The notes: generated from the sequence alone by a model not told the origin. Positions 14,681-46,300 are shown, counted from the stretch's first letter. The stretch is DNA of 64,000 nt from Acidobacteriaceae bacterium (GCA_019240475.1 JAFAYI010000008.1:12980-76979); one strand, 5' to 3'. Numbers and translations: made by a program.

Positions 14681-14756
14681 CTGAGCGATGAACAGGGGCG
14701 CGAAGTACAAGGCGCGAAATACACGGAATGCATAGGCGGTAATCGAGGAGACCACG

Positions 14757-17980: not shown

Positions 17981-17986
17981 AACGTT

Positions 17987-21855: not shown

Positions 21856-21858
21856 CGT

Positions 21859-23751: not shown

Positions 23752-23753
23752 AA

Positions 23754-24263: not shown

Positions 24264-24321
24264 TGCAGTGGCGTTCATCAGCATGACAGGCGGCTGTGCA
24301 GGAAACGGCTAAAACCCAGGT

Positions 24322-28836: not shown

Positions 28837-29290
28837 CTTCGGTCAGCTGGTGAATTTGGTCCGGGCCCATCAGAAACTTTCGCTGATTGCGGCCTCGATC
28901 CGGTAGCGCCCCGGCCTGAACTTGGCTAGAAAAAAAAGAAACGAACTCTCATTTGCAATCACTAATGCTTGCGATATAGTAAACGGACCGGGGTTCAATT
29001 GCCGACGTGTAACGACCGCTTTCGTAGCCGCTAGCTGCGCACGGGTTGAGTTGGCGGATCTTATACAAGCTGTTTCACGTGGCTGAATTGGGGGTGTCGA
29101 AGTCGATTGCAGGATTCGAATAACCATTGGCATTCAACGCGCTTTCTGCATGCCGTTCGCAGATTGAACGGTTTAAAACGGGCGTCAAGCACAGCTTGAT
29201 CGCCCATGGTTGAAGACCGCGTTCTCAAACTCCGATGCTGCCTTTTCCTTCTCCGGAATCGGCCGGCACGGTGAAGGAGGTTCCTCATTT

Positions 29291-30828: not shown

Positions 30829-32169
30829 ATGGCTAACGCTACAGTTGCTTTGGTGGAAGAGGGATCGCATCTTGAGGATGCATTGCGTAAGCACCTGGAA
30901 TCAGCCGGGTTCGATGTGTTGTTGGCTTCTCACGACGCGCTGGACCGTGTGCTTCTTTCGCCTGCTCGCCTGTTCATAGTCGCGAACCGCTCCCCCGATA
31001 CCGCCTACGCCGTTTCTGTACTTCAGCGCCTTCACCGAGCGCGTTCGGTCGTTCCCGTCTTCCTCCTGGCTCGGGTGAGTTCAGAGCAGTTGGCCGTTGC
31101 CGCTCTTAAACAAGGGGTGGCCGATTACTTCGCTCCACCGATCGATTTGCATGACGTGATGACCGTGGTGCGTCGCGCCACCGCTTCCCGATTCGCTTTT
31201 GCGGACCGCGAGTTTAAAGTGGATAACCCGACGGGAGGCCGCGACATGATCGGCGAGAGCATCTCCATGCGCGAGCTTCGCACCTACGTCGGGAAAGTGG
31301 CGCAACGGGAATGTAACGCTCTTATCCTGGGTGAAACGGGAACGGGAAAAGACCTGGTGGCTGAGGCTATTCACTTCAACAGTCCGCGAAAAAGCAAGCC
31401 GTTCGTATCTGTAAACTGCGCTGCAATCCCCGATACGCTGCTCGAAAGCGAACTCTTCGGGTACGAAAAAGGCGCCTTCACTGGCGCGGACGGCTCCAGA
31501 GAAGGCAAAATTGGCCAGGCACAAGGCGGAACCCTCTTTTTAGATGAGATCGGCGATATGACACCCTATGCCCAAGCCAAAATCCTGCGCGTCATTGAAA
31601 GTAAGCAGATTCAACGGTTGGGAGGCAAAGCTTGCATTCCGGTAAATGTGAGAATTCTCGCCGCCACCAATCAAAATCTGCCGAAGCTGATTTCTGAACA
31701 GCGCTTTCGTAAAGACTTATACTTCCGGCTGAATGTTGCGCAAATCCCGCTGCCTTCGCTTCGCGACCGACGCGAGGATATTGGCGCGTTGCTGAACTAT
31801 TATGTGGGCGTATTCAATCACCAGAGCGGGTCACGTGTGGAAGGTTTTACAGCGCGCGCTCTGATGCGGCTCACCGAGTATGATTGGCCTGGCAACGTCC
31901 GAGAACTGCGAAGCATGGTTGAGTCCATTTTCATCGATCCGCCGTACCCCCGCATCGACGAGTGTCATCTGCCGCTGACCGGTTCGAACCTCCACCGCGC
32001 CGAAGTGGATGATCGGCAGCGCTTAATGGAGGCGCTCCGAATTACTCATTGGAATAAGAGTAAGGCGGCCGCAAGGCTGCGTTGGTCGCGCATGAAGGTC
32101 TACCGCAAGTTGGCTCAATATCGCATTGAACAACAAACCGAAAAAGCGATGTCAGCGAACGGCGGGTGA
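30829..32169 (+). CDS. sigma-54-dependent transcriptional activator (NtrC-family EBP) with degenerate receiver domain
   Basis: The AAA+ core has Walker A GETGTGKD, the GAFTGA loop (YEKGAFTGA) and LFLDEIGDM. The C-terminus is a Fis-type HTH ([21 protein letters not shown]). The N-terminal receiver-like domain lacks the canonical acidic pocket. Confidence 0.9.
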
Positions 32170-32292: not shown

Positions 32293-34815
32293 CTATTGCA
32301 GCGCACTTGCCGATACCGGCGTTGTCGCGATGCTGGTCAGCTTCCGCTGGCATCCGTCCCAAAGCGCAATCCGCGCCTCAATTCCGCTCTGCGCGGCGCT
32401 CGCCGCCTTGTCCCACAGCTCTTCCCGTTCGCCTGCCAGCCGCTCCAACATTCGCCTCGCCGCGGGACCATGGTTATCCCCATCCAGTTCTATGTGCCTC
32501 TCCAGATAAAACTTGAACGTCGGAACATCCACTTCCGGACTAGCCCAGTGTGAGAGGATCCGTTCGAACATCTCCGGGATGATATCTTCCCGGCCGTACA
32601 GGAAATCCGCTGCCACTTCCACGAGGTGGCCGTTCATCGCAACATCCAATGTGCGCAAGACGAATTTGGAAACATGTGATGGAACCCTTTGGGCTACCAG
32701 CGCATCCGCGGGCGTGCTCCCCGCCTTCAAGGCCGTCAAGAAATTGAGAAATGGGCCGGTATCTGCTCCCACCTCCCGCATTGCAGCCAAATAAATTTCC
32801 AAATGGCTGGCCGGCACGCCATCCGGACCTTCGTCGCTCTCCTCGCTATGGATGATCTCGTTGATGAAACGCGCCAGACTGGCGTCATCGGACGGCATCC
32901 AAGGAAGCCCGGTGCAAGTCAGATCGCGCTGCAGCCGCTTCGCGATCGACATGAAATCCCAAACTGCGTATACATGCTCTTCCATGAACGCGCGCAGCCG
33001 CTCTATACAGTCGACGGTCAGATAGATCGGATGCTGGAGCAATTTGTCCCGCATGGCGAACAATCCGGGGTGCTTCTTCAGAATCGTTGTGGGCAGCTTG
33101 CTCAGGTGCGGCGTGTTGCGTGGATCTGCCGCAGCTGTCAGATTGCGCGGATTGTGGAAGCACAGCGGATCGTCCGCCATGTAGCTGCCCTTGGCCTGCG
33201 CCATACCGCGGCATCCGGGACACCGGTCGCTCTCATAGTAGTAGCAGCTCGCGCACCAGCTATCGGGCGGCCGTTCATATTCGCGTAGATCCTTGACCAC
33301 CGGGCTTTCCGCCAGAATCTTCCGCAGACTGCTTTGCCGAGTGTTCCCGAGCGGAACAAATGTCCCGCTGCACGGACGTACATCCCCTTCGTAGTTCACG
33401 TACAACGAGAAGTAGTTGGCGAGGCATGAATAACCAACGCGCAGCGGCAGCAGGGGCCATGTGTAACCGTATTCGCCGCGGTCCAGCAGCCACAACTCCT
33501 CCCAAAGGTGCTTCAGTTCGAGCGGTGAGAGCAGTTCGCCCGGATCGCCATCGTAGTGGCAGCCTACGAATCTCTCGAAGTACGGAATCATTCCGCGTTC
33601 CCGCGCATATCGCCACATGGTCGGCATGTCGGAAAGGTTCTTCCGAACCACAATACTTTCAAGCGAGATCGGAAGCTTTCCATCCCCGTAGCCGGCTTCC
33701 ATAAGATGGTCGATGCCTTCGAGAACCTTGCGCCACCCTCCCCTTACGCCGACCATCTGGTCGTGTATCCAGGAGCGCGTGCTGTAAAGTTTCACGTACG
33801 GGGCCACCTTGAGCGCTGCCATGTGCTCGGCCTTTTTCCGATCGATCAACGTGCCATTCGTGAAGACCTCAACCTGCATACCGCGCTGCACTGCCCGCTC
33901 GGCCAGATGGAAGAATAACGGCGAAGAGAGCGGTTCGCCGCCGCCGATCAAATCGGCGTTCTTCGCTCCGAGATCGGCCGCCTGATCGATCACGTCGTAA
34001 AGCTCCGCCAAATCCAGTGGCGACTTGGTCGCATTGATATTGACGAAACCTGGCTCGAATTTCTCCAGCTCGAAAACGTTCTTCACATCGCCGAATCCCG
34101 CAAAGCAACCCGTGCAGGCCAGATTGCAGCGATTCGTAAATTCCATGTTGAAGTACAACAGCCGTTCGCGCCGTCGCGCCGACCAATACTCTTCATCGCT
34201 GAATCCCTCCGAATCGAACACCGGCGCCGGTCTCAGCGTTCCTCGCGCAATCTCCAACTCATCGCTTTCCGCGATGCGCTTCAGCACGTCATTCATCTCC
34301 GGTTGCGAGATGGTGTACGAGCGGTCGGTAGGAACCAGCAGCCCGCGGTCGTTCTGATATCTGACGTTCGGACGGGGCTCGACATGAATCTGAGGGCCAT
34401 CCTCTCCGCCGTCCCAGCTAATGCCGCTCGGTAGTGCTTCCGTCAGGCGAACCGGTCCGTCGAACACCACTCGGATGTCGCTTTCGACCGTGTTCTGGCA
34501 TGAGAGCCGCTTCCCTTTGAGGCGCTCGGCATTGGCCGCCTCCACCGCGTTTGGCTGGCTTATACGGCCCTCTATTAGTTCGAACCGGCAGGTCAGGCAT
34601 TTGCCCTCTCCGCCGCAGGTATGCGGAATCGAAATCCCGGAGCCTCGCGTAGCGTCCAAGATCGACTGGGCCGCCTTCACCACAAATGTGCCCTGTCCAC
34701 AGTCCACAGTGAAGGCGCCACCGGGCTGGCTGGAACGTAAGTTCCGCGCTGCTGTTGTATCCTCCACCGGGAAAGTGGCGCCGTTCTGCAACGGACTTCC
34801 GCTCGCTGTGCTCAT
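32293..34815 (-). CDS. three-domain fusion: 2Fe-2S ferredoxin / radical SAM with SPASM extension / DUF3050 (haem-oxygenase-like fold)
   Basis: The ATG has an AAGGAG RBS. The ferredoxin motif is HTCGGEGKCLTCRF..RLSCQ. The rSAM motif is FTNRCNLACTGCFAG (CxxxCxxC). The SPASM region is Cys-rich (RPCSG.., WCASCYYYESDRCPGCRG..DPLCF). The C-terminal HPIYLTV..FMEEHVYAVWDFMSIAKRLQ..PWMP..INEIIHSEESDEG..SHLEIYLAAM resembles DUF3050. Confidence 0.85.
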   Translation of the reverse strand: MSTASGSPLQNGATFPVEDTTAARNLRSSQPGGAFTVDCGQGTFVVKAAQSILDATRGSGISIPHTCGGEGKCLTCRFELIEGRISQPNAVEAANAERLKGKRLSCQNTVESDIRVVFDGPVRLTEALPSGISWDGGEDGPQIHVEPRPNVRYQNDRGLLVPTDRSYTISQPEMNDVLKRIAESDELEIARGTLRPAPVFDSEGFSDEEYWSARRRERLLYFNMEFTNRCNLACTGCFAGFGDVKNVFELEKFEPGFVNINATKSPLDLAELYDVIDQAADLGAKNADLIGGGEPLSSPLFFHLAERAVQRGMQVEVFTNGTLIDRKKAEHMAALKVAPYVKLYSTRSWIHDQMVGVRGGWRKVLEGIDHLMEAGYGDGKLPISLESIVVRKNLSDMPTMWRYARERGMIPYFERFVGCHYDGDPGELLSPLELKHLWEELWLLDRGEYGYTWPLLPLRVGYSCLANYFSLYVNYEGDVRPCSGTFVPLGNTRQSSLRKILAESPVVKDLREYERPPDSWCASCYYYESDRCPGCRGMAQAKGSYMADDPLCFHNPRNLTAAADPRNTPHLSKLPTTILKKHPGLFAMRDKLLQHPIYLTVDCIERLRAFMEEHVYAVWDFMSIAKRLQRDLTCTGLPWMPSDDASLARFINEIIHSEESDEGPDGVPASHLEIYLAAMREVGADTGPFLNFLTALKAGSTPADALVAQRVPSHVSKFVLRTLDVAMNGHLVEVAADFLYGREDIIPEMFERILSHWASPEVDVPTFKFYLERHIELDGDNHGPAARRMLERLAGEREELWDKAASAAQSGIEARIALWDGCQRKLTSIATTPVSASALQ

Positions 34816-34842
34816 TCCTTGCTCCTTAACAACTGTGCTCCG

Positions 34843-35766
34843 CTAATGAACGTACTCGGCGGTACACTCTTCTTGGGGCGCCAGTTCGCGCGCGGTTTGA
34901 GCGAGGAGCCGAACACGATCCTCCCAATCCGCGCCCATATCCATAGGCCGGAATTCGACCCGCAGGGATCCCGGCCGGCCGCGTAGACGCGTCCAGAACC
35001 ATACGCTCGATTCAAGTTCTAAGAACGGTGGATCTGATTCGGGACACGGAATTCGTTCGAATGTGTCAATCGCCCGCCGATACTCCGTGAAGGACTCGAT
35101 CGCGTATGGCACAAATCCCACGCGCCGCAGCGTACCGGATCGATTCCATTCCCCATCCGCCTCCTCGAAAAGCCGCATGGTGGTGCAGGAACTGTCGAGC
35201 AGCCGGCCATTGAACTCGATCGGCATCTGGTAAGGCCGGACGGGCTCGTGGCCACGACGATTGTATTCGTTGAAGAGTCTTAGGGCCGCCGCGTCGGCGG
35301 CGGGCTGCACATGAATATGAATCTCGTTCAGACATGCCAGAACAGTCTCGCCCGGGAACACAAACTTCTCGCCGTCCTCGAAGAGCACCGTCGCGCGGCT
35401 GTTGGCAAAATAGCTTGATGTGGCTCGGCTGCGTGCGTTTGGAGCCAAGAGCGAGGGATCACGAAGCTGGTCCGGCCGCACCCGCGGCACAACCGGCGCG
35501 GCGCAAACCTGGTATCCAAGCTGCACCGCACACTCATGCAGGTGTGCAGCATCCTGGCGCAGTTCCGTCAACGCGAGGTTAATCCCTCGCTTTGTGAGCG
35601 GCCAGGGTCCTGGATTCAGTTCAATCTGAAAGCTCCCTAACTCCGCCGCTGGCATGTTAGGATATGCACGCAATTGCCACAGGCGGATCACTTCTGCGGT
35701 CGAATGCATTGCGGGATATCCGGCGCCGTCGAGAAGAAAGAACTCGAGTTCAACACCGAAAGTCAT
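34843..35766 (-). CDS. GCS2-family carboxylate-amine ligase (YbdK/EgtA-like)
   Basis: Start at ATG 35766, which overlaps the upstream methyltransferase stop (ATGA). The track's 450-aa extension is rejected. Motifs seen are FGVELEFFLLD, FQIELNPGP, NEIHIHVQ and WTRLRGRPGSLRVEFRPMD, spaced as in glutamate-cysteine-ligase family 2. Confidence 0.65.
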   Translation of the reverse strand: MTFGVELEFFLLDGAGYPAMHSTAEVIRLWQLRAYPNMPAAELGSFQIELNPGPWPLTKRGINLALTELRQDAAHLHECAVQLGYQVCAAPVVPRVRPDQLRDPSLLAPNARSRATSSYFANSRATVLFEDGEKFVFPGETVLACLNEIHIHVQPAADAAALRLFNEYNRRGHEPVRPYQMPIEFNGRLLDSSCTTMRLFEEADGEWNRSGTLRRVGFVPYAIESFTEYRRAIDTFERIPCPESDPPFLELESSVWFWTRLRGRPGSLRVEFRPMDMGADWEDRVRLLAQTARELAPQEECTAEYVH

Positions 35767-36398
35767 GCCACGCACCTGGCGGATTCCGGTTCGGGCGACC
35801 AAAACGAAAACGCCGTCTCTCCCGAAGCGTCGCCGTAGACTTGTGTCATTCGGTAAGCCCTGGTCAGCGTCGTAACCGCGCGAATTTGTTTGAATAAACA
35901 CTTGAGTAAAAGTGAGTGCCCGCTTCCGGCAAGAGATTGGAAACAACTCCCGATTACGGCGAGTCCGCCTTTCGGTGAACTGACGCACTTCCGCTCCCAG
36001 GCGGCGAGCTGCCTCGCCGAGGATGGCTCCATGAATGGTGGATTGCAGATAACCAGCGCAGGCTCGCAGGGCGTGAGCGCCTCTCCCGCCCGCCACCGTT
36101 TCGCCCAGCCGGGCACGCCATGCGCCGCCCGATTCGCTTCGGCTGAGGCTACCGCCTGTGGGCTGGAATCCAGAAAATACACGGATTCGAAACACGGTCG
36201 ATTAGCCAGATAGATTGCAATACCCAGCGCTCCCGAGCCGCAGCACATGTCGATGAGACGCGTTGGCCGACGAAAGACGCCCCGCGCGAGCACGTTCCGG
36301 GCAGCCTCGAGCAGGCCCAGCGAAGATTCCCGAGGTAAGAATGTCTGATTGGTCGCGACCAGATCCAGGCCGGCCCATCGGATATTCACAAATCGCAT
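35763..36398 (-). CDS. class I SAM-dependent methyltransferase with NPPF motif (HemK/N-methyltransferase-like)
   Basis: The SAM-binding motif is LIDMCCGSGALGIAIY with acidic YFLDSS, and the catalytic-type motif is VICNPPF. ATG 36398 is preferred over the track's GTG 36452, because a -35/-10 pair would lie inside the longer version. Confidence 0.7.
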   Translation of the reverse strand: MRFVNIRWAGLDLVATNQTFLPRESSLGLLEAARNVLARGVFRRPTRLIDMCCGSGALGIAIYLANRPCFESVYFLDSSPQAVASAEANRAAHGVPGWAKRWRAGEALTPCEPALVICNPPFMEPSSARQLAAWERKCVSSPKGGLAVIGSCFQSLAGSGHSLLLKCLFKQIRAVTTLTRAYRMTQVYGDASGETAFSFWSPEPESARCVA

Positions 36399-36436
36399 TA
36401 TTTCGATACAGCTCTCGCCGCGCGAACCGTGTGCCG

Positions 36437-36466
36437 AGTATAGCCACGCCACACAGAATAAGTCAA
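36437..36466 (-). promoter_or_regulatory. candidate sigma-70-type promoter for the minus-strand methyltransferase-ligase-rSAM operon
   Basis: On the minus strand, TTGACT (36466-36461) is followed by an 18-nt spacer and TATACT (36442-36437). This lies about 40 nt upstream of ATG 36398. Pattern match only. Confidence 0.25.
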
Positions 36467-36570
36467 GACAAATTCATCAGAAATCCTGATCTTACTCTCG
36501 CAATCGCTAATCTCAAAATTTTCATATCTGTAATTGAAAACTTCTAGATTGTCTTTTTTTGATACAGAAT

Positions 36571-36586
36571 TCACGAAAACTCGTGA
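36571..36586. promoter_or_regulatory. 16-bp perfect palindrome TCACGAaaacTCGTGA in the divergent control region (operator candidate)
   Basis: It is the only perfect inverted repeat I noticed in the AT-rich roughly 200-bp gap between the two divergent biosynthetic operons. Confidence 0.3.
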
Positions 36587-36658
36587 CAACAGATAACTCC
36601 TATGATAATTTCGCAGTGTCGTGCGCGACGCGACTAACTTACAGAGTTGGAGGTGTGT

Positions 36659-36958
36659 GTGGCTAAAGCACTGGAAGGAACGCCTGGAGCGAGCATCGAG
36701 TTGCTTGAAGAAGGCGCGGACATGCATGTTGAACGATCCGTCATCAAAGCGGGCGGTACGATTCCGGAACATTCTCACAAGGTCGCGTCCAGCTACGTTG
36801 TGGTCAAGGGCAGCGGAGAGCTGACTGGAAAATCCGGACGGCGTGTGTCCACCGGTGATACGGTTCTGATTCCCGCCGGGCAGCAGCACGGTTGGAAAGG
36901 CGGTGAGGGCGATGGCCTCACCATCGTTGGCGTGTTCAACGGGCCGCAAGAGCAATAA
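36659..36958 (+). CDS. cupin-domain protein
   Basis: GTG 36659 lies 5 nt after GGAGG (36649-36653); the track start is TTG 36647. AGGTIPEHSH..VVVKGSGELT..GDTVLIPAGQQHGW is a classic two-motif cupin metal site. Confidence 0.65.
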   Translation: MAKALEGTPGASIELLEEGADMHVERSVIKAGGTIPEHSHKVASSYVVVKGSGELTGKSGRRVSTGDTVLIPAGQQHGWKGGEGDGLTIVGVFNGPQEQ

Positions 36959-37025
36959 CAGACATTCTCCCGGAAACGCTGGCGTTTCCAGATGCGGGCG
37001 TTTCCGCTTTTCCGCAGGAGCCTAC

Positions 37026-38231
37026 TTGCTAACCCGCGATACGAACCTACGCCTGGCCCCGGGTCTGCAAGTTACCTCCTTAGGTCAGGAAGTCGTGCTG
37101 GAGGGCAGACGCGACGCCATTCCGTGCCCTCGCGACGTTCTATTCGCGCTTCAGAGACTACCCTGCACCCTGGGCGCACTTGTCGATAACTTGCCTTCGC
37201 CGTCGGCCTACGAATGGATGGCCGCCTCGGCCGGTCTAATGGTGCTGATTGGAGCCGGTGTTGTCCTCAGCGGCGAGGATTCCTGCCGGGCGCAGTTTCT
37301 GGATCATGGTTTCGGGTTTGTGGAACCGCATATCGCCATGATCCAGGACGTGAGGCGAACACAGCTCTTTATGGAAGCGATCCGGCGAACTGTGGCGCCC
37401 GGGGATGTCGTGGCCGATCTTGGTACGGGCAGCGGCGTCCTTGCAATTGCCGCGGCTTTGGCAGGCGCGCGTCGCGTCTATGCCTTGGAACGCAGCGGCA
37501 TCGCCGAGGTCGCCGCGCGCATGTTTGAAAAAAACGGCATCGCGGAGCGCGTCACGCTTATCCGGGATAGCTCGAGTTCTCTCTCGCTTCCCGAGCGGGC
37601 GCAAGTGCTGGTCGCCGAACTGATCGGCACAGATCCATTGTGTGAACGCATTCTTGAGTACACCGCCGATGCGGTCGAGCGTTTGCTGGTCCCCCATCCT
37701 CGCCTGATTCCGAGCGCCTTGCGGATTTTCGTGCGAGCGGTCGAACTCCCGGACACAGTCACCCAACGGCATATTGTCGAAAAGCCTCTTGCGGCACGCT
37801 GGGCCGATTTGTATGGATTCGATTTTTCCGCACTGGAGGAAGCGACCGCGGGAATTTCGGCTTACTTTACGGTCGCAACCCCAGTGGCGGCGCAATGGGC
37901 TACTTTAACGGATGCAACGAAACTCGTTGACATCGATCTCGCACGCTGTCCCGCTCTGCCGTTGCAAGTCTCCACCGCTGCGGTCGTGACGACGCCCGGG
38001 GTTATGAACGGCCTCACGGTATTTTGGGAGATCGACCTGGCTCCCGATATCCGCTTCTCGAACGATCCGCAATTATGTGATGCGAATTGCTGCTGGGGCA
38101 CGGCTGTGTGGCTCCTGGCGGAACGCCCACGGGTGCGCGAAGGGCAAACGATCCGCCTGAACTTTCGCTATGCCGCATCGCGATCTTCGGCGAACGCGAC
38201 ACTCGAGCGCTCCGAGGCATGCCGGGCATGA
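37026..38231 (+). CDS. protein-arginine-methyltransferase (PRMT)-like class I methyltransferase
   Basis: TTG 37026 lies 5 nt after GGAG; the track start GTG 36903 overlaps the cupin gene. Motif I is VVADLGTGSGVLAIAAALAGARRVYALE. VLVAELIGTDPLCERIL looks like the PRMT double-E loop. LIPSALRIFV follows, as in the PRMT beta-barrel junction. Confidence 0.65.
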   Translation: MLTRDTNLRLAPGLQVTSLGQEVVLEGRRDAIPCPRDVLFALQRLPCTLGALVDNLPSPSAYEWMAASAGLMVLIGAGVVLSGEDSCRAQFLDHGFGFVEPHIAMIQDVRRTQLFMEAIRRTVAPGDVVADLGTGSGVLAIAAALAGARRVYALERSGIAEVAARMFEKNGIAERVTLIRDSSSSLSLPERAQVLVAELIGTDPLCERILEYTADAVERLLVPHPRLIPSALRIFVRAVELPDTVTQRHIVEKPLAARWADLYGFDFSALEEATAGISAYFTVATPVAAQWATLTDATKLVDIDLARCPALPLQVSTAAVVTTPGVMNGLTVFWEIDLAPDIRFSNDPQLCDANCCWGTAVWLLAERPRVREGQTIRLNFRYAASRSSANATLERSEACRA

Positions 38232-39316
38232 AAATCCGGGTCGACCCCGCTATCCACATTCACTCCGACCTCGGCGCTCCCGGAACTTCGGGACGCCAAC
38301 TGATTCTCGAAAGCCTGCGGTCGGGTCTGCGGTTCGAGTTGTTGGGCACACCTGCATTGCAGGCTTTGAACCGTGCCGCGCATTGGATGGAGGCGGACGA
38401 CTTTCTTGAGGCGCTGACATCTAGCGGCCTGGAACGTGCCAAGGCCGTTGCTTTTCTCGATGACGCACTCGGGAATAGCCTGCTTCAGCGCTTTGCCCCA
38501 GGAGCCCACGACGAGGACGCGCGCGCAATTGCATTGAATCGCGCCAGTGCTTCTCTGGCGCAGCAGTTCCTGCTCGCCAGGTCCCATCAGCAGTATCTCG
38601 ACTATAGCCTCCCCGAGACATGCGGCATTGAAGAAGACCTAATGTCGGCTTACCGCTCACAGGAGACGCCTCCACCGATATTCAAAGACTGCGACCGGCC
38701 ACTCAAAACTGTGACCCTTCCCGCAGTTCGAGAAGCGTTGCCGGCAGTTCTGTGCGATGAGCCTGACGCTTCAGAAAATGCACCGCGCGATGTGAGATGG
38801 CTGGCGGAATTCCTGCGGGCCGCCGTCGGGGCAACAGCGACGCTGGAAGATCCTGTGCAGGGCACGCTCCTTTTGAAGACCTATCCATCCGGCGGAGCAC
38901 GCCATCCCGTGGAGTGCTATCTGGCGGTACGCTCCGTTGAACAACTGGCTCCCGGTTTTTATCACTACTCGGTCCGCCGGCATGAATTAGATCGAATATC
39001 AGATATCCAGGATTCTCTAAGTACCTGCCTGTTTCCCGGCTTCAATTCAGAGTTGGTTATTGTACTTACGGCTCTTCCCGAACGAGCAATGTGGAGATAC
39101 CGGGAAACCACCTCGATCAGCGTCGTGTTGCTCGATGTGGGCCACGCGGTCGGAAATTTTTCACTGCTCTGTGAATGCGAGGGGACGCCGTATCGCATCC
39201 ATACAGGCGCGAATCTTAATCGCGCCGCAAATTACATGTCTCTCGAACAGTTTCGCGAAGTAGTGGTTGCAGCGATCGCACTTGATCTATCAGCGCGCGC
39301 AAAGAATGGGGAATGA
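38228..39316 (+). CDS. SagB-type dehydrogenase / nitroreductase-superfamily protein 1
   Basis: The ATG overlaps the upstream stop (ATGA). LLLKTYPSGGARHPVECYLAVRSVEQLAPGFYHYSVRRHEL matches the SagB-type signature (PSaGa..P.E.Y...gl..G.Y.Y). Confidence 0.7.
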   Translation: MKIRVDPAIHIHSDLGAPGTSGRQLILESLRSGLRFELLGTPALQALNRAAHWMEADDFLEALTSSGLERAKAVAFLDDALGNSLLQRFAPGAHDEDARAIALNRASASLAQQFLLARSHQQYLDYSLPETCGIEEDLMSAYRSQETPPPIFKDCDRPLKTVTLPAVREALPAVLCDEPDASENAPRDVRWLAEFLRAAVGATATLEDPVQGTLLLKTYPSGGARHPVECYLAVRSVEQLAPGFYHYSVRRHELDRISDIQDSLSTCLFPGFNSELVIVLTALPERAMWRYRETTSISVVLLDVGHAVGNFSLLCECEGTPYRIHTGANLNRAANYMSLEQFREVVVAAIALDLSARAKNGE

Positions 39317-40344
39317 TGCGTCGATATCGCGTGAATCCTTTACTGGCGGCCGGGTGGCGCGCAACTGAATTGCAGACGCCTCTGAGATTCACGCTAGAAG
39401 ATGCGCTTTCTAACTGTGCTCGACCGCTCGACGCGGAAGACTTCTGGGTTCTGAACTTTGCCAAGAGTATTGGCGAAGCTGCGCAAACCAGATCCCAATT
39501 ACTGGCCGAAGCAGTTCGATTCGCCCTCTTGCCTGAGCAGGAAGTCGAGCGGACCCTCGCGCCGCTATGGGATGTCCTATTTGTAGCGGAGGACTCCGGA
39601 AGCCAAGTAGACCGTGCGGTCGGTGTATGGGAGCATTTCGACTGCAAGCTGGCGCTCGAGTTCTATGCGCAATCGCTCGACGAAGGGCATCAAAAGCATA
39701 GTCCGGACCGCTCGGTTTCTTCGAGCGGCTTCCCGGAGGCGGACATACCACTGCCCGCGCCCGTGAGTTTTCCCCACACATCGCTGGCAAACGTTCTGTA
39801 CAGACGGCGCACGTGCCGCAATTTTAATGGCCGCTCCGTCCCGCTTGATCTTCTGTCGTCGGTGCTGCATCGAGGGATCGCGCGCGCCTCTGCGCACTTC
39901 CCGCCATTCGCGGTCCAGTATCACCTGATTGTATTGCGCGCCGGGGGCCTCGCCTCCGGTTCTTATATCTACGATGCCGCCCGCCATGCGGTAGCAGCTC
40001 TCCGTCAGAGAGAGTCGACCGACTTGGAGCAGGATCTGGTCCAGATGCTCATCGGACAGAAGTACGTCAAAGGATGTGCCGCAGCGCTGCTGCTGTGGCT
40101 CGATACAGCTTCTCTGGTCATCGGCGATCCGGGGCCTGCAGCTTTTCGGAAGTGGCTGATCGCAACTGGCGCCTTGGCGCAGAGACTCATTGTGTTAGGC
40201 TGCGCATTGGGTTTGGAAACATTTCTCTCGGCCGCGATTCATGATGCGTACGCGCGTCATATTACGTGCAACCGCCTGAAAGACCGCTATGTTCCCATGC
40301 ATTGCGTGGCCTTCGGCTATGCCGATGCTACTAATTCCTGCTAA
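39313..40344 (+). CDS. SagB-type dehydrogenase / nitroreductase-superfamily protein 2
   Basis: The ATG overlaps the upstream stop. LANVLYRRRTCRNFNGRSVPLDLLSSVL is a nitroreductase N-motif, and GGLASGSYIYDAARHAV is a SagB-like segment. Confidence 0.6.
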   Translation: MMRRYRVNPLLAAGWRATELQTPLRFTLEDALSNCARPLDAEDFWVLNFAKSIGEAAQTRSQLLAEAVRFALLPEQEVERTLAPLWDVLFVAEDSGSQVDRAVGVWEHFDCKLALEFYAQSLDEGHQKHSPDRSVSSSGFPEADIPLPAPVSFPHTSLANVLYRRRTCRNFNGRSVPLDLLSSVLHRGIARASAHFPPFAVQYHLIVLRAGGLASGSYIYDAARHAVAALRQRESTDLEQDLVQMLIGQKYVKGCAAALLLWLDTASLVIGDPGPAAFRKWLIATGALAQRLIVLGCALGLETFLSAAIHDAYARHITCNRLKDRYVPMHCVAFGYADATNSC

Positions 40345-40397
40345 CAAACGCCCCATGTTTTACTCAATTAGTTATAACTGCCATTAGGAGATTTTCG

Positions 40398-40610
40398 ATG
40401 AATCCATATGAAATTAAATTACTGGCCAGGCATGCCGATGCTCTGGCACGTCATCCCGGTCTGGCACGCCACGCTGGTCTCGCCCGTCACCCCGGCTTAG
40501 CCCGCCATCCAGGCTTAGCTCGTCATTCGGGCCTTGCTCGCCATCCCGGTCCGGCCCGCCATCCCGGTGTCGTGGCCAGCACAGAGCAGTCAGGCAGCGG
40601 CACTGACTGA
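40398..40610 (+). CDS. 70-aa repeat peptide, candidate multi-core RiPP precursor (nine A-R-H-x-G units)
   Basis: AGGAG lies 7 nt upstream of the ATG. The sequence is MNPYEIKL-LARHADA-LARHPG-LARHAG-LARHPG-LARHPG-LARHSG-LARHPG-PARHPG-VVASTEQSGSGTD. The units differ mostly at synonymous third positions, so the peptide rather than the DNA is conserved. Confidence 0.7.
   Translation: MNPYEIKLLARHADALARHPGLARHAGLARHPGLARHPGLARHSGLARHPGPARHPGVVASTEQSGSGTD
40422..40568 (+). repeat. in-frame tandem repeat of an 18-nt (hexapeptide) unit, about 8 copies; the first unit is 21 nt
   Basis: Read directly: ctg gca cgt cat ccc ggt / ctg gca cgc cac gct ggt / ctc gcc cgt cac ccc ggc / tta gcc cgc cat cca ggc / tta gct cgt cat tcg ggc / ctt gct cgc cat ccc ggt / ccg gcc cgc cat ccc ggt. 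Confidence 0.9.
40587..40609 (+). other. stem-loop at the 3' end of the precursor ORF (7-bp stem CAGTCAG/CTGACTG, 9-nt loop)
   Basis: A perfect 7-bp inverted repeat spans the last codons and the stop codon. No U-tract follows, so it is not a canonical intrinsic terminator. It may be an RNA stability or processing element. Confidence 0.3.
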
Positions 40611-40666
40611 GCCACACGTCCGAACAGGAAACGGCGACACTCTTACTCCGAGTTCCTTCGTAAGCG

Positions 40667-41773
40667 ATGGCCTCCCCGCATGTCCGTCCCGCAGCCGAAT
40701 CGATCGAAATCGACGGTTCTCGTTTTCACCTGATCTGGCTGCGGGATAATTGCCGCTGCAACTTCTGCCAGGACTCCGGGACCATGCAGAAGCTGTTCGA
40801 CATTACGGCAACTGACCTACAACCGCGCGTCCGGAACCTCTGCATAGACCAGGATTCGGTGTGCATCACGTGGGACGAAGCGCCTCTGCATGAATCCGTG
40901 TATGGCCGCAAATGGCTCCAGGCGCATGCCTACGACAAGCTTTCGGAGATGCCCGAGGAACAGCCGCCTGTCGAACTTTGGCACGCCTCGCGCTGGACCG
41001 CGAGCCCCCCTCCGGCCTATTTGCCGGATTCATCCACTTGGCACAATTACCTTAATCGGCTAGGATTCGCGCTGCTAAGGGATCTGCCGCCCGAGTCCTT
41101 CCTGAATTTCCTTCGTAGCATCGGCCCCATCCAGCCAACCGAGTTTGGTGATGTGGCGCCGCTTCGCGCTTCCCTCAACGCCAACGATCTCGGCGAAACC
41201 GGATGCCATCTCGATCCGCACACGGACTACTCCGTGTACATGCATTTCCCGCCCGTGCTCAGCTTTCTGCATTGCATTCGCAACGATTCCGACGGGGGCG
41301 TCTCCATTCTTGTGGATGGATTTGCCGCCGCCGAACATTTTCGCCGCGAAGATCCGGCCGGTTTCGATCTCCTTGCCTGTACTCGCCTTCCGTTTCATCA
41401 GTTATATGGACGCTGGCGCTATCACCACAAGCGGCTCAGACCCATGATCGAGTTGGACGAGGACGGAAGTATCCTCGGTGTCCACGTCGGACACCCGCAC
41501 ACCAGAAACTGGCGCTTTCCGTTTGACACGATGGCCCCGCTGTATATGGCCTACTCTCGCTTTATCAGGATCCTCAACGATGCGTCCCGGCAATTTTATT
41601 ACCGCCTGCAACCGAATGAATGTCTGGTCTTCCTCAACCAGCGTGTGCTGCATGGACGGACTGCGTTCTCCCCGGATGCTGGCGAGCGTCATCTCCAGGT
41701 CGCGTACGTGAACTGGTCTTACTTCGCCGCGCGGCGACGATTTGAAGACCAGAGGAGCAGCGAACTCGTTTGA
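40667..41773 (+). CDS. Fe(II)/2-oxoglutarate dioxygenase of the gamma-butyrobetaine/trimethyllysine hydroxylase type (TauD superfamily with DUF971-like N-domain)
   Basis: The N-terminal IEIDGSRFHLIWLRDNCRCNFC carries the CxCxxC zinc motif of the GBBH N-domain. The facial triad candidates are HLDPHTDYS (HxD) and the distal RVLHGRTAF. Confidence 0.8.
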   Translation: MASPHVRPAAESIEIDGSRFHLIWLRDNCRCNFCQDSGTMQKLFDITATDLQPRVRNLCIDQDSVCITWDEAPLHESVYGRKWLQAHAYDKLSEMPEEQPPVELWHASRWTASPPPAYLPDSSTWHNYLNRLGFALLRDLPPESFLNFLRSIGPIQPTEFGDVAPLRASLNANDLGETGCHLDPHTDYSVYMHFPPVLSFLHCIRNDSDGGVSILVDGFAAAEHFRREDPAGFDLLACTRLPFHQLYGRWRYHHKRLRPMIELDEDGSILGVHVGHPHTRNWRFPFDTMAPLYMAYSRFIRILNDASRQFYYRLQPNECLVFLNQRVLHGRTAFSPDAGERHLQVAYVNWSYFAARRRFEDQRSSELV

Positions 41774-42201
41774 TGTCGGGCAGCATCATCTCATGCGAGA
41801 GCCCTCGAGAACGACTGCAAGTTTCGCCCGCCGTCATCACGAAACTGATCGGACGCGATCTCGTGCTTCTCGACCTTCAGTCCGGTCGGTATTATATGCT
41901 CGCTCCCACCGCCAGAGTGTTTTGGACCGAGATTCTTCGGGAGGATTCTCGATCGCCGATTCTCGATCGATTATCGGCCTTGTTCCGTGCAGGTCCCGGG
42001 CAACTCGAAGCCGATCTGGGTGAGTTCTCGGCGGCCATTCGGGCGGCCGGCCTGATCACGCACGGGCTAGATCGCGAATGTCGTTCCGGGATTCCCGCGG
42101 ATCTCTCGGTATCCGATCTGCCGCCATACTCCAAGCCGGAGTTGTTTCTGGCTGGCCATGTACGTGATTTCACCTCTGAGCCACTACGAAAAGACGAATG
42201 A
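41773..42201 (+). CDS. PqqD-family protein (RiPP recognition element candidate)
   Basis: The ATG overlaps the upstream stop (TGATG). LIGRDLVLLDLQSGRYYMLAPTARVFWTEIL..LDRLSALF..QLEADLGEFSAAIRAAGLI matches the PqqD/RRE pattern. Confidence 0.7.
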   Translation: MSGSIISCESPRERLQVSPAVITKLIGRDLVLLDLQSGRYYMLAPTARVFWTEILREDSRSPILDRLSALFRAGPGQLEADLGEFSAAIRAAGLITHGLDRECRSGIPADLSVSDLPPYSKPELFLAGHVRDFTSEPLRKDE

Positions 42202-42706: not shown

Positions 42707-42952
42707 TCAGCTAGCAGTGTGATCGGCAAGGGTGAGGAGATGCTGATAAGGGAATCGGTCGCGGATGTTGCTGGAGAAGTATTGGCCCTTGGAGTCGGCG
42801 GCCAGAAAGTCGTGATACTGTTGCGGCGGAAAATCGAAATAGCAGTACAGTTCACCGCTTCGAAAACGCAGATAGAGCGTGCGCTGGCCGGCGAGGTATG
42901 CGGCTGAAGTGAAGACGCTGGAGTCTAAAGGCAACCAGTCCACGACGTACAC
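42707..42952 (-). CDS. KTSC-domain protein
   Basis: 81 aa. SSVFTSAAYLAGQRTLYLRFRSGELYCYFDFPPQQYHDFLAADSKGQYF is the KTSC domain pattern. Confidence 0.7.
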   Translation of the reverse strand: MYVVDWLPLDSSVFTSAAYLAGQRTLYLRFRSGELYCYFDFPPQQYHDFLAADSKGQYFSSNIRDRFPYQHLLTLADHTAS

Positions 42953-43306
42953 CTATTCCTATTTTCGACGACGCGCAAAGCGGCGAGCGCGACCACGCCA
43001 CTTCATCCCAGACTCGAACACGCGAATCCGATGAAGCGGCAGCCGAGAGCTATCCAGGGCGGGTATCGATATGATCTCAGCAACTATTTTCTCGAGCACC
43101 ACTTTGGGATTTCTTCTTGACAGACTTCAATCGATCCATTAACGTTCAACTAAAGGTTAGCGAAATTCGCATAAGCGCGACAATGCGAGCAATCCTGCAG
43201 TTCGTCCCTTGCCATTCGCGCGAATTGCTACGACTCGTGATTTTGACGTTTTCTCAACGTGACTGTCAGAGTTCCAGGCCTTGCTCTGAACCTTCAAGGA
43301 GATTGT

Positions 43307-46300
43307 ATGACCATAATTGGGTCCACCCGCGGATGTGAATCACGGCTGCTGATCCGACATTCACTGTTGCTAGCCGTTTTTTTTGCGATCTCAGCAGTGC
43401 TTTGCGCACAAGGTTACTTCGGAACGGTGAGCGGCACAATCACGGACTCGAGCCAAGCCGTCGTGCCGGGCGCAGGAGTCACACTTACAGATCAGCAGAA
43501 GGGCTATCAGTACAGAGCTTCCACCGACGGCAGCGGACGGTATGTTTTCACGTCGATTCCGCCGGGGACCTATTCGGTTACGGCCGAGGTGCAAGGCTTC
43601 GACAAGGCAGTTCTCACCAATGTCACGGTCAACGTCAGCGAGAACGCGAGCGCGAACCTGACGTTGAGAGTCGCTACTACGCGCCAGTCGGTGGACGTGC
43701 AGTCGCAATCGCAAACCCTATCGACCGAAGATGCCGTTACGGGGCAGGTGATCAATCGGCGATTCATCAACGACCTGCCTCTCGTCGACCGCTATGTACT
43801 GGATTTTGTCGAACTCGGGCCGGGTATCAACAATATGAGCGATCAAAACTCGGTGGGCGACACCGGAACCAATTTCGTTTCGAATGGCAGTCGAGGCGCA
43901 AGCGCCGACGTGCTCATGGACGGCGCTTCCATCACCAACTTTGAGCCCAACGGCGGAATCACTCAGGTGACGTATACGCCCTCGGCCGAAGCTGTCGAAG
44001 AATTCAAAGTGCAACAGACGAACTTTAGCGCGGAATACGGCTTCTCAGGTGCGTCCGTTGTGAACATGATCACACGCTCTGGAACGAATGCCTTTCACGG
44101 CAGCGCCTACGACTTTCTTCGCAACCAGATCACGGACGCGAACAACTGGTTCAACAACGAGTACGGCGTTCCGATTCCTCCCGTCCACCGGAATAACTAC
44201 GGCGGAACAATCGGTGGACCGATCATCAAGAATAAAACCTTCTTCTTCTTCGACTACGACGGCACACGCGCTTCCAGCATGGCGACGTATCAAGCCGGCG
44301 TCCCGAGCGCGGCGGAACGGAACGGCGACTTTGGTGAACTGTGCGCAGCCAACGGCGGAACGTTCAATTCGGCCGGCGTCTGCAGCGTAATTGCGGGCCA
44401 GCTCTATGATCCCTATTCCGGCACCTTTCAGACACCCGATAACCAAGCAGCCGGTGCATACCGCAGCGCGTACATTCCCTTTAACAATCTGACGGCCTAC
44501 ACGAGTCCGGGGAATCCGAACCTGAACGGAACGCCTTACCAGCTTGCTCAGGTCCCCGGCAATCTGATTGACCCCGTGGCCCAGAAGATGATGAGCTTGT
44601 TTCCCCTGCCGAACATCGCAGGTGGCAACATCTATGACAACTGGATTGGATCAGGGGCAACTCCGAGCGCGGATGATAAGTTTGACATCCGAATCGATCA
44701 CCGGTTTAGCGAGAAGAACCAGATCACATTCAAGTATTCTCAGGACCTGAACAGCACAAGCCCGTACAACTGTTTCAAGAACTTCACGGACCCTTGCGGC
44801 AGCGGCGCAAACAGCGGATCGTCGCATCTGTTTGCAATCAACGATACGCACACCTTTAGCCCGACGCTTCTGCTGACCAGCACGTTCGGCTACACCCGCG
44901 GATCGACACTGATAGACGCTTATAACTCTAGCCAGAATAAGGATCCACTTGGCACGTTGGGTTTTCCGTCTTATCTGCAATCAAATGGGTTTTCGGGAGT
45001 CCCCGCTATATTCATCGAGAGCGGGTATTACTCAGCGGGGTTCACTAGTATTGGGCAAGATCCTTACGGCAACTACCGGCAAGGCCAAGATACCGGCCAG
45101 CTTACAGAACTGCTGACGAAGATCAAGGGGAATCACGAATTGAAATTCGGCTTCGAGGGACGCCTGCATCAACAAAACTATATTCAGACCAACGCTCCGC
45201 TCGGATACTTCCAATTCAATAGTACGGGTAGCTCTCAATGTCCAGTTTCGGACGTGACGCAGTGCGGCGGAGATGCGATGGCCAGCTTCATGATGGGCCA
45301 GATGGCTGGCGGAGGTCAGACCTTTTACGAGCTGCAGTTTGAGCCGGCAACGGAGAATTATCAATATGCCGGATATGTTCAGGATAACTGGAAAGTCATC
45401 CCCAAGCTGACACTGAATATCGGCCTTCGCTACGACGTATCCCTTCCCAGAACGGAACGCCACAATCGCATGGACTGGTTCGATCCGAATGTTGTGAATC
45501 CGCTGAACGGTGGAAGCATCTCCTACGCGGATCCGATTTCGGGACAAAACGTTACCCGCACATTGATAGGCGGCGAAATGTTCACGAACGCCAATATACG
45601 CAATAACTGGCTGACGGATTGGAAGGATTTTCAGCCCCGCTTTGGATTCTCTTACCTTCTTGACAAGAAGACCGTAGTTCGTGGCGGCTATGGGATTTAC
45701 TATGACCAATCGCGTTCGGGGGCAAACGGGCTATTGAGCTACGGATCACAAGGCTTTAATCAATACACCAACGTCATTACAACTTATCAGAACGATGGTG
45801 CTACTCCGTATCTCCATTTGAATAACCCGTTTCCAAACGGCCTGACGGAACCGCCGGGAAGGTCGCTCGGGTTACTCAACGACGTTGGTTATGGCGCGAT
45901 TGGCCCCCTTCGTACTGCCGCCGCTGCTCAAACACCTTACGAGCAAAGCTGGAGCTTCGGGATCCAGCGTGACCTCGGAGGAAATACGATGCTGGATGTT
46001 GAGTACGTTGGGAAAAAGGGCACACATCTGTATTTTGCTGGCGATAACAATTACGATGTGCTGGGACCGCAGATTGAGAGCCTCACGCCGACCCAGATTG
46101 GTAATCTAGGTAATTACGTCGCCAATCCATTTGCGTCGCTCCTGAATGGTTCTTATTACACGAACAGCGTACTGACGAGCCCCACGGTCCAGGCTTATCA
46201 ACTCCTGTTACCGTATCCTCAGTACACCGGCGTAACGACAGATGAGCCGCCCAGTGCTACTTCGATTTACAATGCTCTGCAACTCACGGTCGAAAAGCGC

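Follow-up and report, generated by a model that had tools for sequence, protein, structure and literature searches.

A ribosomal-peptide locus with an ARH-repeat precursor and a TfxB/TfxC-type dehydrogenase pair in Acidobacteriaceae: a possible multi-core offshoot of the tiarin pathways

Tiarins are trifolitoxin-like peptides defined by two neighbouring flavin mononucleotide (FMN) dehydrogenases, the SagB-type TfxB and the nitroreductase-type TfxC (bioRxiv 10.64898/2025.12.02.691738). In the tfx cluster, these are the only enzymes bearing a recognition element (RRE) of the kind found in the pathways for peptides that are made by the ribosome and modified after translation (RiPPs) (bioRxiv 10.64898/2025.12.02.691738). 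Tiarin precursors display a weakly conserved acidic/aliphatic leader motif and a highly conserved core Gln that is converted into a fluorophore, and the residue preceding this Gln decides which aminoacyl-tRNA synthetase is inhibited, the S-R-Q-G-C core of trifolitoxin being directed against ArgRS (bioRxiv 10.64898/2025.12.02.691738). Tiarins inhibit aminoacyl-tRNA synthetases and are peptide antibiotics (bioRxiv 10.64898/2025.12.02.691738). We describe here a locus occupying positions 32293-42201 of a 64,000-nucleotide stretch of DNA, called the window below, which is a contig of an Acidobacteriaceae metagenome-assembled genome (GCA_019240475.1, JAFAYI010000008.1:12980-76979; ENA ERZ27313870). 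This locus is a conserved cluster for a ribosomally made, post-translationally modified peptide; its reading as an offshoot of the tiarin pathways is the one towards which we lean, with a little over even confidence.

Pfam and NCBIfam profile searches delineate ten genes in two divergent operons and bear out the genes and domains listed in the original prediction, which had been made from the sequence alone. The minus-strand operon encodes a methyltransferase, a carboxylate-amine ligase and a large radical SAM fusion protein; the plus-strand operon encodes a cupin, an arginine methyltransferase, two SagB-type dehydrogenases, a short repeat peptide, a dioxygenase and a PqqD-type protein. Successive genes overlap by ATGA at 35763-35766 (minus strand), 38228-38231 and 39313-39316 and by TGATG at 41771-41775, all four sites having been verified as proposed. 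According to the Pfam lists, no gene for a YcaO, lanthipeptide or lasso enzyme, a protease or an exporter is found within ~10 kb on each side or downstream to 64 kb; for the locus itself, the original prediction had already noted such an absence.

The peptide gene (40398-40610, plus strand), with an AGGAG ribosome-binding site 8 nt upstream, encodes a precursor of 70 amino acids, MNPYEIKLLARHADALARHPGLARHAGLARHPGLARHPGLARHSGLARHPGPARHPGVVASTEQSGSGTD, comprising seven ARHxG units. The repeat array extends over 40442-40568, with a period of 18 and 7.1 copies in Tandem Repeats Finder. A protein search with this precursor returned a sole match, an unrelated false open reading frame (ORF) lying over a repeat beside CRISPR-associated Cas10/RAMP genes (L010 6751-7107). 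Low-complexity filtering removes the precursor repeat in such searches; genomes and metagenomes were instead scanned for DNA patterns, which together with the related loci yielded eight precursors: those of the window, L002, L008, L020, L022, L027, L043/L044 and L042. All open with the leader M-x-[DE]-Y-[ED]-I-[KR]-P, itself free of repeats; Tyr is replaced by Phe in L022, and the [ED] position is held by Thr or Ser in L002 and L042. The leader is followed by 4 to 10 tandem hexapeptide units G-L-A-R-H-x, which contain no conserved Cys, Ser or Thr. Across 41 units from six loci (L043/L044 and L042 stand outside this count), A, R, H and G are invariant while their codons vary freely; position x is P, A, V or S (D or E in L042) and Leu is sometimes replaced by I, V, P or T. 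When the units are compared in pairs, synonymous codon differences outnumber non-synonymous ones by 63 to 22 in the window, by 116 to 18 in L008 and by 35 to 0 in L002. Invariant residues and mostly synonymous differences together indicate selection on the precursor at the protein level, and the proposal that the ARH-repeat ORF is a precursor therefore stands.

Five of the seven precursors of the P/A/V/S type carry a Gln soon after the last repeat (TEQSG, LARQT, ARDQF, SSQTE and SNQD): those of the window (40569-40607), L008, where it replaces the His of the last unit, L022, L027 and L044. None is present in the tails of L002 and L020, nor after the L042 repeats. This tail Gln may be a remnant of the tiarin X-Gln core. 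The pattern scans also matched out-of-frame or non-coding GC-rich repeats in L012, L013, L015-L019, L021, L023, L025, L026 and L028-L032, which were set aside. An orphan (G-L-A-R-H-P)n-like repeat of Candidatus Velthaea, a genus of the same phylum as the source of L002, occurs at L011 7397-7531 (minus) and L024 787-921 (plus) and is devoid of a start codon. A search of 8 kb around it (7.4 kb on the downstream side) detected no homologue of the ten cluster proteins, and the repeat may be either a decayed precursor or a non-coding repeat.

A tblastn presence/absence table reveals the same ten gene types, in rearranged order, in at least four complete loci: the window, L002, L008 and L043/L044. 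The two with named sources, Acidobacteriaceae for the window and Eremiobacterota for L002 (metagenome-assembled genome GCA_963795695.1), belong to different phyla, and the other two are metagenome contigs. In L002, the fusion gene is followed by the genes for the peptide, the TauD-family dioxygenase and PqqD, with the two SagB genes on the opposite strand. In L008, TauD and PqqD form a single protein of 516 residues, the cupin has three barrels and the arginine methyltransferase gene comes after the SagB genes. L043/L044 presents the order peptide-TauD-PqqD, then a minus-strand group of PanD-like, fusion, GCS2 and MTS genes, then cupin-PRMT-SagB1-SagB2. Three gene blocks are reshuffled in order and orientation and yet kept together in all four, and the short contigs L020, L022 and L027 carry partial sets. 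Because the gene set recurs rearranged in L002, L008 and L043/L044, its adjacency is not a matter of chance; the co-occurrence of homologues with the same enzymes elsewhere, proposed as a check of the original prediction, is thereby established. At L042, a precursor of the form MDQYSIKPLLARSHDG-IARHDG-(LARHDG)3-(LARHEG)3-LARHDG lies beside a SagB1/SagB2 pair, and ATP-grasp and Cupin_8 genes take the place of the genes for the minus-strand enzymes, TauD, PqqD, the arginine methyltransferase and the cupin. The L042 precursor gene (9829-10002, minus) is antisense to a mis-called ORF of 62 residues; its neighbours (6198-12087) include an ATP-grasp/pre-ATP-grasp pair and the Cupin_8 protein, the acidic x position co-varying with the ATP-grasp genes. 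The precursor and a TfxB/TfxC-type pair are present in every locus long enough to show both. From the arrangement of L042 we infer that these form the core of the system and that the remainder is modular tailoring.

The dehydrogenases of this core are SagB1 (38228-39316, plus), a TfxB-type SagB dehydrogenase (TIGR03605, 85.4 bits for a cut-off of 78.4), and SagB2 (39313-40344, plus), a TfxC-type dehydrogenase of the nitroreductase fold (PF00881, SagB-related). Their genes overlap by ATGA and lie well within the ~2.7 kb that delimits a tiarin pair. Among 72,556 plasmids, SagB1 has its best match in the SagB protein encoded by the tiarin cluster of Natrinema pallidum (39% over 196 residues, pairwise E 7e-36). 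SagB2 matches the TfxC homologue of that cluster and shares 27% identity (E 3e-11) with WP_138655625, a TfxC homologue in the list of the tiarin paper. When all of these proteins are compared with one another, SagB1 falls with the B-type partners, and SagB2 with the C-type partners, of the pairs from Natrinema, Thermus, Halorussus and Anoxybacillus; SagB1 and SagB2 themselves barely match (19 bits). A lone Bacillus cereus SagB scores 61 bits against SagB2, the second-highest score outside the SagB2 orthologues, and falls between C-type partners. The Natrinema and Thermus pairs figure in the list of the tiarin paper; those of Halorussus and Anoxybacillus were judged tiarin-like from their gene context. 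A tblastn search of the plasmids with TfxA gave no match, and the reference pairs hence exclude the genuine Rhizobium TfxB/TfxC.

The AlphaFold model of SagB1 (pLDDT 84.7, from a 27-sequence alignment) has ThcOx as its best full-length fold match, with a TM-score of 0.65. Modelled alone, residues 1-92 adopt a strand-strand-strand-helix-helix-helix layout (pLDDT 91.5), and the top 15 Foldseek matches of this N-terminal domain in the PDB are all RREs, among them those of leader-bound TbiB1 and lasso B1, ThcOx, MadB, McbB, PbtF and TruD. SagB1 is accordingly modelled with an N-terminal RRE, which spans residues 1-88 (38228-38491) and whose profile matches that of the PqqD family of the locus with an hhalign probability of 92.7%. 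A profile built from the N-termini of SagB2 and four TfxC-type proteins matches the SagB1 RRE profile at 88.3% (E 3e-6, 84 columns), and the N-terminal domain of SagB2 can be described as RRE-like. The isolated N-terminal domains gave no match in Pfam, and initial hhalign comparisons with three-sequence alignments produced no clear signal.

The precursors point in the same direction as the enzymes. Published tiarin leaders such as EYDIEEV, DFKIEEI and DFEIFEL resemble that of the locus, at equal spacing to the modified residue. The L020 precursor EYDIKPIELESAGLARH aligns with the Natrinema tiarin EYDIEEVDDDEEPALHQ, the Tyr standing 15 residues from the His of the former and from the Gln of the latter. 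This spacing (14 in L022) is found in six of the seven P/A/V/S-type precursors; the L002 leader is longer, with 23 residues, and the spacing in L042 is slightly shorter. The aligned precursors therefore place His where tiarins have Gln, and Arg at the specificity position. The original prediction had considered the enzyme combination to match no RiPP class known to its author, which proves too strong given a TfxB/TfxC-type pair and a leader with tiarin-like motif and register.

Of the further plus-strand enzymes, the PRMT-type arginine N-methyltransferase (37026-38231) had first been given a start at 36903; comparison with its orthologues moves it to a TTG at 37026, with CAGGAG upstream. Besides a PrmA domain, the protein contains PF22528 PRMT_C (38.6 bits, above the cut-off), and 59 of its 60 PDB matches listed are named arginine N-methyltransferases, the exception, 8rbk, carrying no protein name. 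Its double-E loop, AELIGTDPLCE, aligns with SEPMGYMLFYE of CARM1 with both Glu residues kept and is conserved in the orthologues. The set of matches and this loop point to the invariant Arg as the residue methylated. The protein also has an additional domain of ~100 residues at its N-terminus, which matches the SagB1 RRE profile with an hhalign probability of 46% (E 2e-4, 76 columns) and is probably a peptide-recognition element. Heavy tailoring of Arg and His side chains had been predicted: an intact double-E loop backs the Arg part, while a role for His is suggested by its invariance and position.

The GBBH/TmpA-like Fe(II)/2-oxoglutarate dioxygenase (40667-41773, plus; GBBH_N and TauD) scores below the NCBIfam cut-offs (237 against 400 and 219 against 415). 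Aligned with human BBOX1, it keeps the Fe ligands HxD...H, the 2-oxoglutarate-binding Arg and the N-terminal Zn site C-x-C-x2-C...H. The trimethylammonium cage is altered by Y177F, W181A and Y194E (human BBOX1 numbering), with only Y366 kept, and N191, the BBOX1 residue binding the substrate carboxylate, is replaced by Asp. All of these changes, that of N191 included, recur in L002 and L008. A trimethylammonium substrate was dropped from consideration since the aromatic cage is not conserved, and the pocket would more probably bind guanidinium or imidazolium than a quaternary amine. The start of the gene for the PqqD-type peptide-recognition protein (41773-42201, plus; PF05402) overlaps the dioxygenase stop in the TGATG, and this coupling, like the fusion of both into one polypeptide in L008, indicates that the dioxygenase is leader-guided. 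A role for PqqD in serving the radical SAM enzyme was abandoned, PqqD being tied to TauD and the fusion protein giving no RRE signal. The original prediction had combined the repeat peptide, PqqD and the radical SAM enzyme into an argument for a peptide product: that the locus is conserved and modifies a peptide is supported, and a link between PqqD and the radical SAM enzyme is not, PqqD belonging with TauD. The small cupin (36659-36958, plus; 99 residues, Cupin_2) is a single domain whose metal site reads H-x-H...H and lacks a carboxylate where cupins usually have Glu. Its PDB matches are generic (RemF, DddK and others, with SznF not among them), and it is kept in L002, L008 (as the three-barrel form) and L043/L044.

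The minus-strand operon forms a separate module, a triad of methyltransferase, GCS2-type ligase and radical SAM/SPASM protein. The last of these (32293-34815, minus; 840 residues) joins a [2Fe-2S] ferredoxin (Fer2), a radical SAM domain, a SPASM domain and a HamA-type heme-oxygenase-like DUF3050 domain (278 bits in Pfam); the CX3CX2C motif, as CNLACTGC, and the SPASM cysteines are present. Relatives of the fusion are rare, ~16 among 5.8 billion proteins, and it remains below every NCBIfam radical SAM cut-off (NirJ2, 86 against 500 bits; MftC, 57 against 265; PqqE, 51 against 381). Its linker, residues 118-222, shows no RRE signal (hhalign probability <1%). The DUF3050 region (PF11251, residues 588-825) matches HamA (PDB 9VWB), an iron oxygenase of the diazeniumdiolate pathway leading to fragin, with 200 bits, and keeps every residue that the HamA structure paper names (H40, E84, H96, R167, H199 and R240). 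On plasmids of Burkholderia glumae and Thiodictyon, DUF3050 genes standing by themselves offered no useful context. The GCS2/YbdK-superfamily carboxylate-amine ligase (34843-35766, minus) is a weak Pfam GCS2 match (23.9 bits for a cut-off of 21). It belongs to a rare, distinct clade of only 27 representatives (E<=1e-3) among 1.84 billion proteins, has no PDB match and adjoins the radical SAM gene in every related locus. The third protein (35763-36398, minus; Pfam MTS) is a HemK/MTS-type N-methyltransferase with the motif CNPPF. It scores 58.9 bits with TIGR03534, below the cut-off, and its nearest structures are the N-methyltransferases RlmG, GenN and HemK.

This triad also occurs in distant genomes devoid of the repeat peptide, at L034 3273-10297, L006 6973-13807, L007 8335-13134 and L004 9061-13905, where a tandem-repeat search gave no alternative repeat precursor. 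A PanD-like decarboxylase accompanies it in L006, L007 and L034 and a B12-radical SAM enzyme in L006 and L034, L034 adding a spermine synthase and an S-adenosylmethionine (AdoMet) decarboxylase. The surroundings of two triads, those of L004 and L007, are mobile or defence-rich, with genes of restriction, DISARM-like and integrase types. L004 has GmrSD and an integrase together with a type I restriction enzyme; L007 has a DUF1156 methylase and a helicase as well as an AAA-peptidase pair. The fusion partner of the radical SAM domain differs between lineages, being a HamA-like, an acyl-CoA-dehydrogenase or an ABC-ATPase domain. The fusion proteins of peptide-linked loci form a close group (70-85% identity) set apart from the stand-alone ones (45-58%). 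At L009, a protein of 460 residues encoded at 2010-3392 (plus), with an N-terminus that by eye is TIR-like (FLSHA...) and two cupin barrels, precedes methyltransferase, radical SAM and ligase genes; the radical SAM protein of this locus has no DUF3050 domain. L042 presents the reciprocal case, a peptide-linked ARH precursor and SagB pair without triad. The proposal of one biosynthetic locus is upheld by the recurrence of the gene set and weakened by the existence of the minus operon as a separate module that also occurs without the repeat peptide.

The pathway that we propose is that of a divergent tiarin offshoot in which one leader would serve multiple cores per precursor. Four proteins come into play for leader recognition: the TfxB-like dehydrogenase with its RRE, PqqD as partner of the dioxygenase, the TfxC-like dehydrogenase with its RRE-like domain and, probably, the PRMT. 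Guided by the leader, the FMN dehydrogenase pair would oxidise or cyclise the Arg-His unit of each repeat, in which His stands in place of the chromophore Gln of tiarins and Arg at the target-setting position. The PRMT would N-methylate the Arg guanidine, and the GBBH-like dioxygenase, with its lost cage and gained acidic residues, would hydroxylate a cationic side chain, probably that of (methyl)arginine. Because no RRE was found in the fusion protein, the triad and the cupin are placed late and considered leader-independent. At this stage, radical C-H functionalisation, N- or C-oxygenation, N-methylation and amide ligation, on the peptide or perhaps on a fragment released from it, would fall to the cupin, the N-methyltransferase with the NPPF motif, the ATP-dependent ligase of GCS2 type and a self-reducing ferredoxin-radical SAM/SPASM-HamA-like oxygenase. 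By analogy with tiarins, our leading guess for the product is an antibiotic inhibiting an aminoacyl-tRNA synthetase. A bolder version, which we deem very unlikely, would make each G-L-A-R-H-x repeat a separate warhead, so that a precursor would deliver 5 to 10 copies of one arginine-mimicking inhibitor. The product would be a Trojan horse akin to trifolitoxin, bearing several warheads directed against arginyl-tRNA synthetase. Such a molecule might contain N-oxygenated or N-N-bonded methylarginine, a chemistry not known from ribosomal peptides, produced on the peptide by the PRMT, the HamA-type oxygenase and the cupin following a SznE/SznF logic, and a further cross-link from the radical SAM fusion. 

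Taken as a whole, the model of a tiarin-offshoot, multi-core cluster appears to us slightly more probable than not, and several points weigh against it. All of the reaction assignments derive from family membership. The tiarin Gln is absent from the repeats, and the dehydrogenase pair may for this reason carry out a different chemistry. The cluster has no conserved companion gene for a copy of an aminoacyl-tRNA synthetase, a GNAT acetyltransferase, an exporter or a protease, which is odd for an antibiotic. Since the triad occurs without the peptide, it may have another substrate than this peptide. The hhalign probability of the PRMT recognition domain, 46%, is low. Finally, the fusion of an O2-dependent oxygenase to an O2-sensitive radical SAM enzyme is mechanistically puzzling.

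Some of these points would be met by a peptide-derived small molecule or cofactor, in the manner of pyrroloquinoline quinone (PQQ) or mycofactocin, a doubtful alternative in our view. The original prediction had likewise raised the excision of a small molecule from each repeat, which is conceivable. Here the repeats would be a disposable scaffold, Arg and His being cross-linked by the radical SAM enzyme, oxidised, methylated and excised by housekeeping peptidases. The extension in which one precursor would release 5 to 10 small heteroaromatic copies, the GCS2 ligase and the N-methyltransferase finishing the free molecule, is to be entertained with the same reserve. Such a scheme accommodates the lack of a conserved exporter, immunity gene and dedicated protease, and radical SAM/SPASM, PqqD and several oxidoreductases are present in the cluster. 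The triad is without RRE and in peptide-free genomes stands beside a PanD-like decarboxylase, spermine synthase and AdoMet decarboxylase, and a PanD-like gene lies inside the L043/L044 cluster itself. Tandem identical cores would suit stoichiometric amplification. Among the points against this reading, the variation at x (P, A, V, S, D, E) and Leu fits a retained peptide no less than a scaffold. PqqD is tied to the dioxygenase and not to the radical SAM enzyme, no peptidase is conserved, and tiarins, the nearest relatives by core enzymes, yield peptide antibiotics rather than cofactors.

The behaviour of the triad also lends itself to the idea that two or three independent systems are merely neighbours, a tiarin-like plus-strand pathway next to a triad/HamA system devoted to a small molecule or to defence. 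The triad is found alone in distant genomes, twice in mobile/defence-rich surroundings (L004 and L007), L042 has peptide and SagB pair without it, and no RRE was detected in it. However, it stays in the cluster through the reordering of blocks in the four complete loci, and the peptide-linked fusion proteins form a tight group compared with the stand-alone ones. A defence function receives no help from PADLOC, which detected similarities to generic radical SAM and methyltransferase domains and no model beyond them. We regard independence as unlikely. Least credible of all, to the point of being nearly negligible, is the notion that the ARH repeat is not a substrate but a non-coding tandem repeat or mis-called ORF, with the enzymes acting on another substrate. 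Similar 18-nt repeats reading ARHPGL in one frame, apparently non-coding or out-of-frame, do exist in Streptomyces and other high-GC genomes, and for the Candidatus Velthaea repeat the search of 8 kb (7.4 kb downstream) detected none of the ten cluster proteins. Against this stand a leader conserved across eight loci, the ribosome-binding site of the window copy, the overwhelmingly synonymous differences between units and the persistence of the ORF beside recognition-domain enzymes through rearrangements.

The two operons diverge from a 260-bp gap (36399-36658) whose AT-rich composition, anticipated in the original prediction, was verified (GC 41.5% against 58.3% for the locus). It presumably contains the promoters of both. 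A promoter and terminator scan found a number of sites no higher than chance, with two sigma-70-like sites in the gap on the minus strand; a reading of the gap by eye made no -24/-12 promoter motif apparent, no dedicated scan having been made, and Rfam gave no match within 31.5-43.5 kb. Beside the fusion gene lie a sigma-54-dependent activator (30829-32169, plus; Sigma54_activat and HTH_8) and a protein of 492-519 residues without Pfam match (29210-30769, plus), neither conserved near the cluster in L002, L008 and L043. Further upstream is a run of large same-strand ORFs (19597-28836, plus, probably extending over ~1 to 29 kb). PF13699 eCIS_core matches at 21859-23751 (630 residues) and 24322-28836 (1504 residues) suggest that the run encodes either a contractile injection system of the extracellular type or a cluster related to toxins; several neighbouring ORFs at 13349-19642 have no Pfam match. 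Just downstream of PqqD are a small KTSC-domain protein (42707-42952, minus) and an outer-membrane protein resembling TonB-dependent receptors (43259-47041, plus; CarboxypepD_reg and OMP_b-brl_4), which are not conserved at the other loci. At 61532-63993 (minus), the gene of a JmjC_2/Cupin_8 protein overlaps the end of that of an ABC exporter (ABC_membrane and ABC_tran) running off the window; they may be part of another locus for peptide modification or export.

If the proposed model is correct, the tiarin family would extend to a His-for-Gln, multi-core branch in which the actual chemistry of TfxB and TfxC could be tested, at a time when the structure of the trifolitoxin chromophore is under revision. 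We know of no precedent in ribosomal peptide pathways for a eukaryote-like arginine methyltransferase with a leader-binding domain, nor, to our knowledge, has a PqqD-guided butyrobetaine-hydroxylase-like dioxygenase or a single protein uniting ferredoxin, radical SAM and an oxygen-dependent HamA-type oxygenase any precedent there. These three enzyme types would then join such pathways. The analysis also defines a rare three-gene module moving between peptide clusters, polyamine-type contexts and mobile elements. The named sources belong to soil and peat lineages that have not been cultured (Acidobacteriaceae and Eremiobacterota), and very little of their natural-product repertoire has been explored.

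Several other described systems share components with this locus. The PQQ and mycofactocin pathways turn a peptide into a cofactor by means of a radical SAM/SPASM enzyme together with a PqqD-type protein. Common features are these two families, a small precursor, follow-up oxidases and the lack of a dedicated exporter. Here, in contrast, the precursor is built of tandem repeats, PqqD is the partner of a dioxygenase of the TauD family, and no homologue of PqqB/PqqC or MftD/MftE is present. Radical SAM/SPASM maturases are recognized by a curated cut-off and by their own RRE or a dedicated PqqD: the fusion protein reaches none of the former and has none of the latter, the sole PqqD being coupled or fused to TauD. 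In WprB/WprP systems (PMC11851443, PMC12957482) and in the poly-cyclopropylglycine peptide (PMC9062424), short repeats are each modified by a radical SAM/SPASM enzyme, and in Wpr a protease then cuts the uniform units out (PMC11851443, PMC12957482). The fusion protein differs in scoring 42 bits in WgkB-type models, for a cut-off of 650, and in joining its radical SAM domain to a ferredoxin and an oxygenase without recognisable recognition domain; the locus also lacks a conserved S9 protease.

HamA/HamB of fragin and SznE/SznF of streptozocin are N-N bond-forming systems (PMC12522199, PMC11705231), the latter converting N-methylarginine into an N-nitrosourea (PMC11705231). The locus resembles the first in its HamA-family heme-oxygenase-like iron oxygenase with conserved ligands and in a small cupin nearby, as is HamB, and the second in its component list: an arginine guanidino N-methyltransferase, an oxygenase of the same fold and a cupin. 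It differs from HamA systems in the fusion of the oxygenase to radical SAM and in having no carrier protein of a non-ribosomal peptide synthetase and no HamC-type N-oxygenase; the Pfam lists of all loci are devoid of the HamA/PvfA context (non-ribosomal peptide synthetase, carrier protein, AurF-like gene; HamC/PvfB). Compared with SznE/SznF, the PRMT is not a SznE homologue, the cupin has no SznF match and the presumed substrate is peptidyl arginine. A PDB search with the oxygenase domain (E up to 0.01) lists HamA 9VWB and not SznF, and in view of this lack of SznF homology the formation of an N-N bond at this locus would be pure speculation by analogy. ThcOx, the azoline oxidase of cyanobactins (PDB 5LQ4, 8PZ5), combines, like SagB1 here, a recognition-type N-terminal domain with an FMN nitroreductase domain, but it acts on azolines generated by YcaO. 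Thiazole/oxazole-modified microcins and linear azole-containing peptides are likewise characterized by YcaO and core Cys, Ser or Thr residues; the window, L002, L008 and L043 encode no YcaO, and the repeats conserve none of these residues.

Tiarins themselves bear the closest likeness to the locus and also differ from it in several respects. Their chromophore-forming Gln is missing from the repeats, which have an invariant His at the aligned position, and the core of the locus is no more than a hexapeptide, present in 4 to 10 copies. The locus possesses no aminoacyl-tRNA synthetase/GNAT immunity gene, YcaO or conserved pump. Paralogues of aminoacyl-tRNA synthetases and GNAT genes, frequent but not universal in tiarins, are absent from the Pfam lists of the window (~13-64 kb), L002, L008, L043 and L042. 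By our count, it adds eight further conserved enzymes: PRMT, the GBBH-like dioxygenase with PqqD, cupin, NPPF methyltransferase, GCS2 ligase and the ferredoxin-radical SAM-HamA fusion. In the accessible part of the tiarin survey supplement, DUF3050, TauD, PqqD, Radical_SAM, SPASM, Fer2, cupin and dioxygenase were not found and a generic AdoMet methyltransferase entry is present, PRMT and GCS2 not having been searched by name. The similarities concern the core of the pathway: an adjacent pair of TfxB/TfxC-type FMN dehydrogenases, a short precursor whose leader bears the acidic/aliphatic motif [DE][FY]xI..., and an Arg just before the modified position, as in the S-R-Q-G-C of trifolitoxin. Accessory methyltransferases and oxygenases are variable in both, and some tiarin precursors are duplicated too. 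Tiarins are thus the closest known class, and the locus is, on balance and by a narrow preference on our part, best viewed as a His-for-Gln, multi-core branch of tiarin-like pathways.

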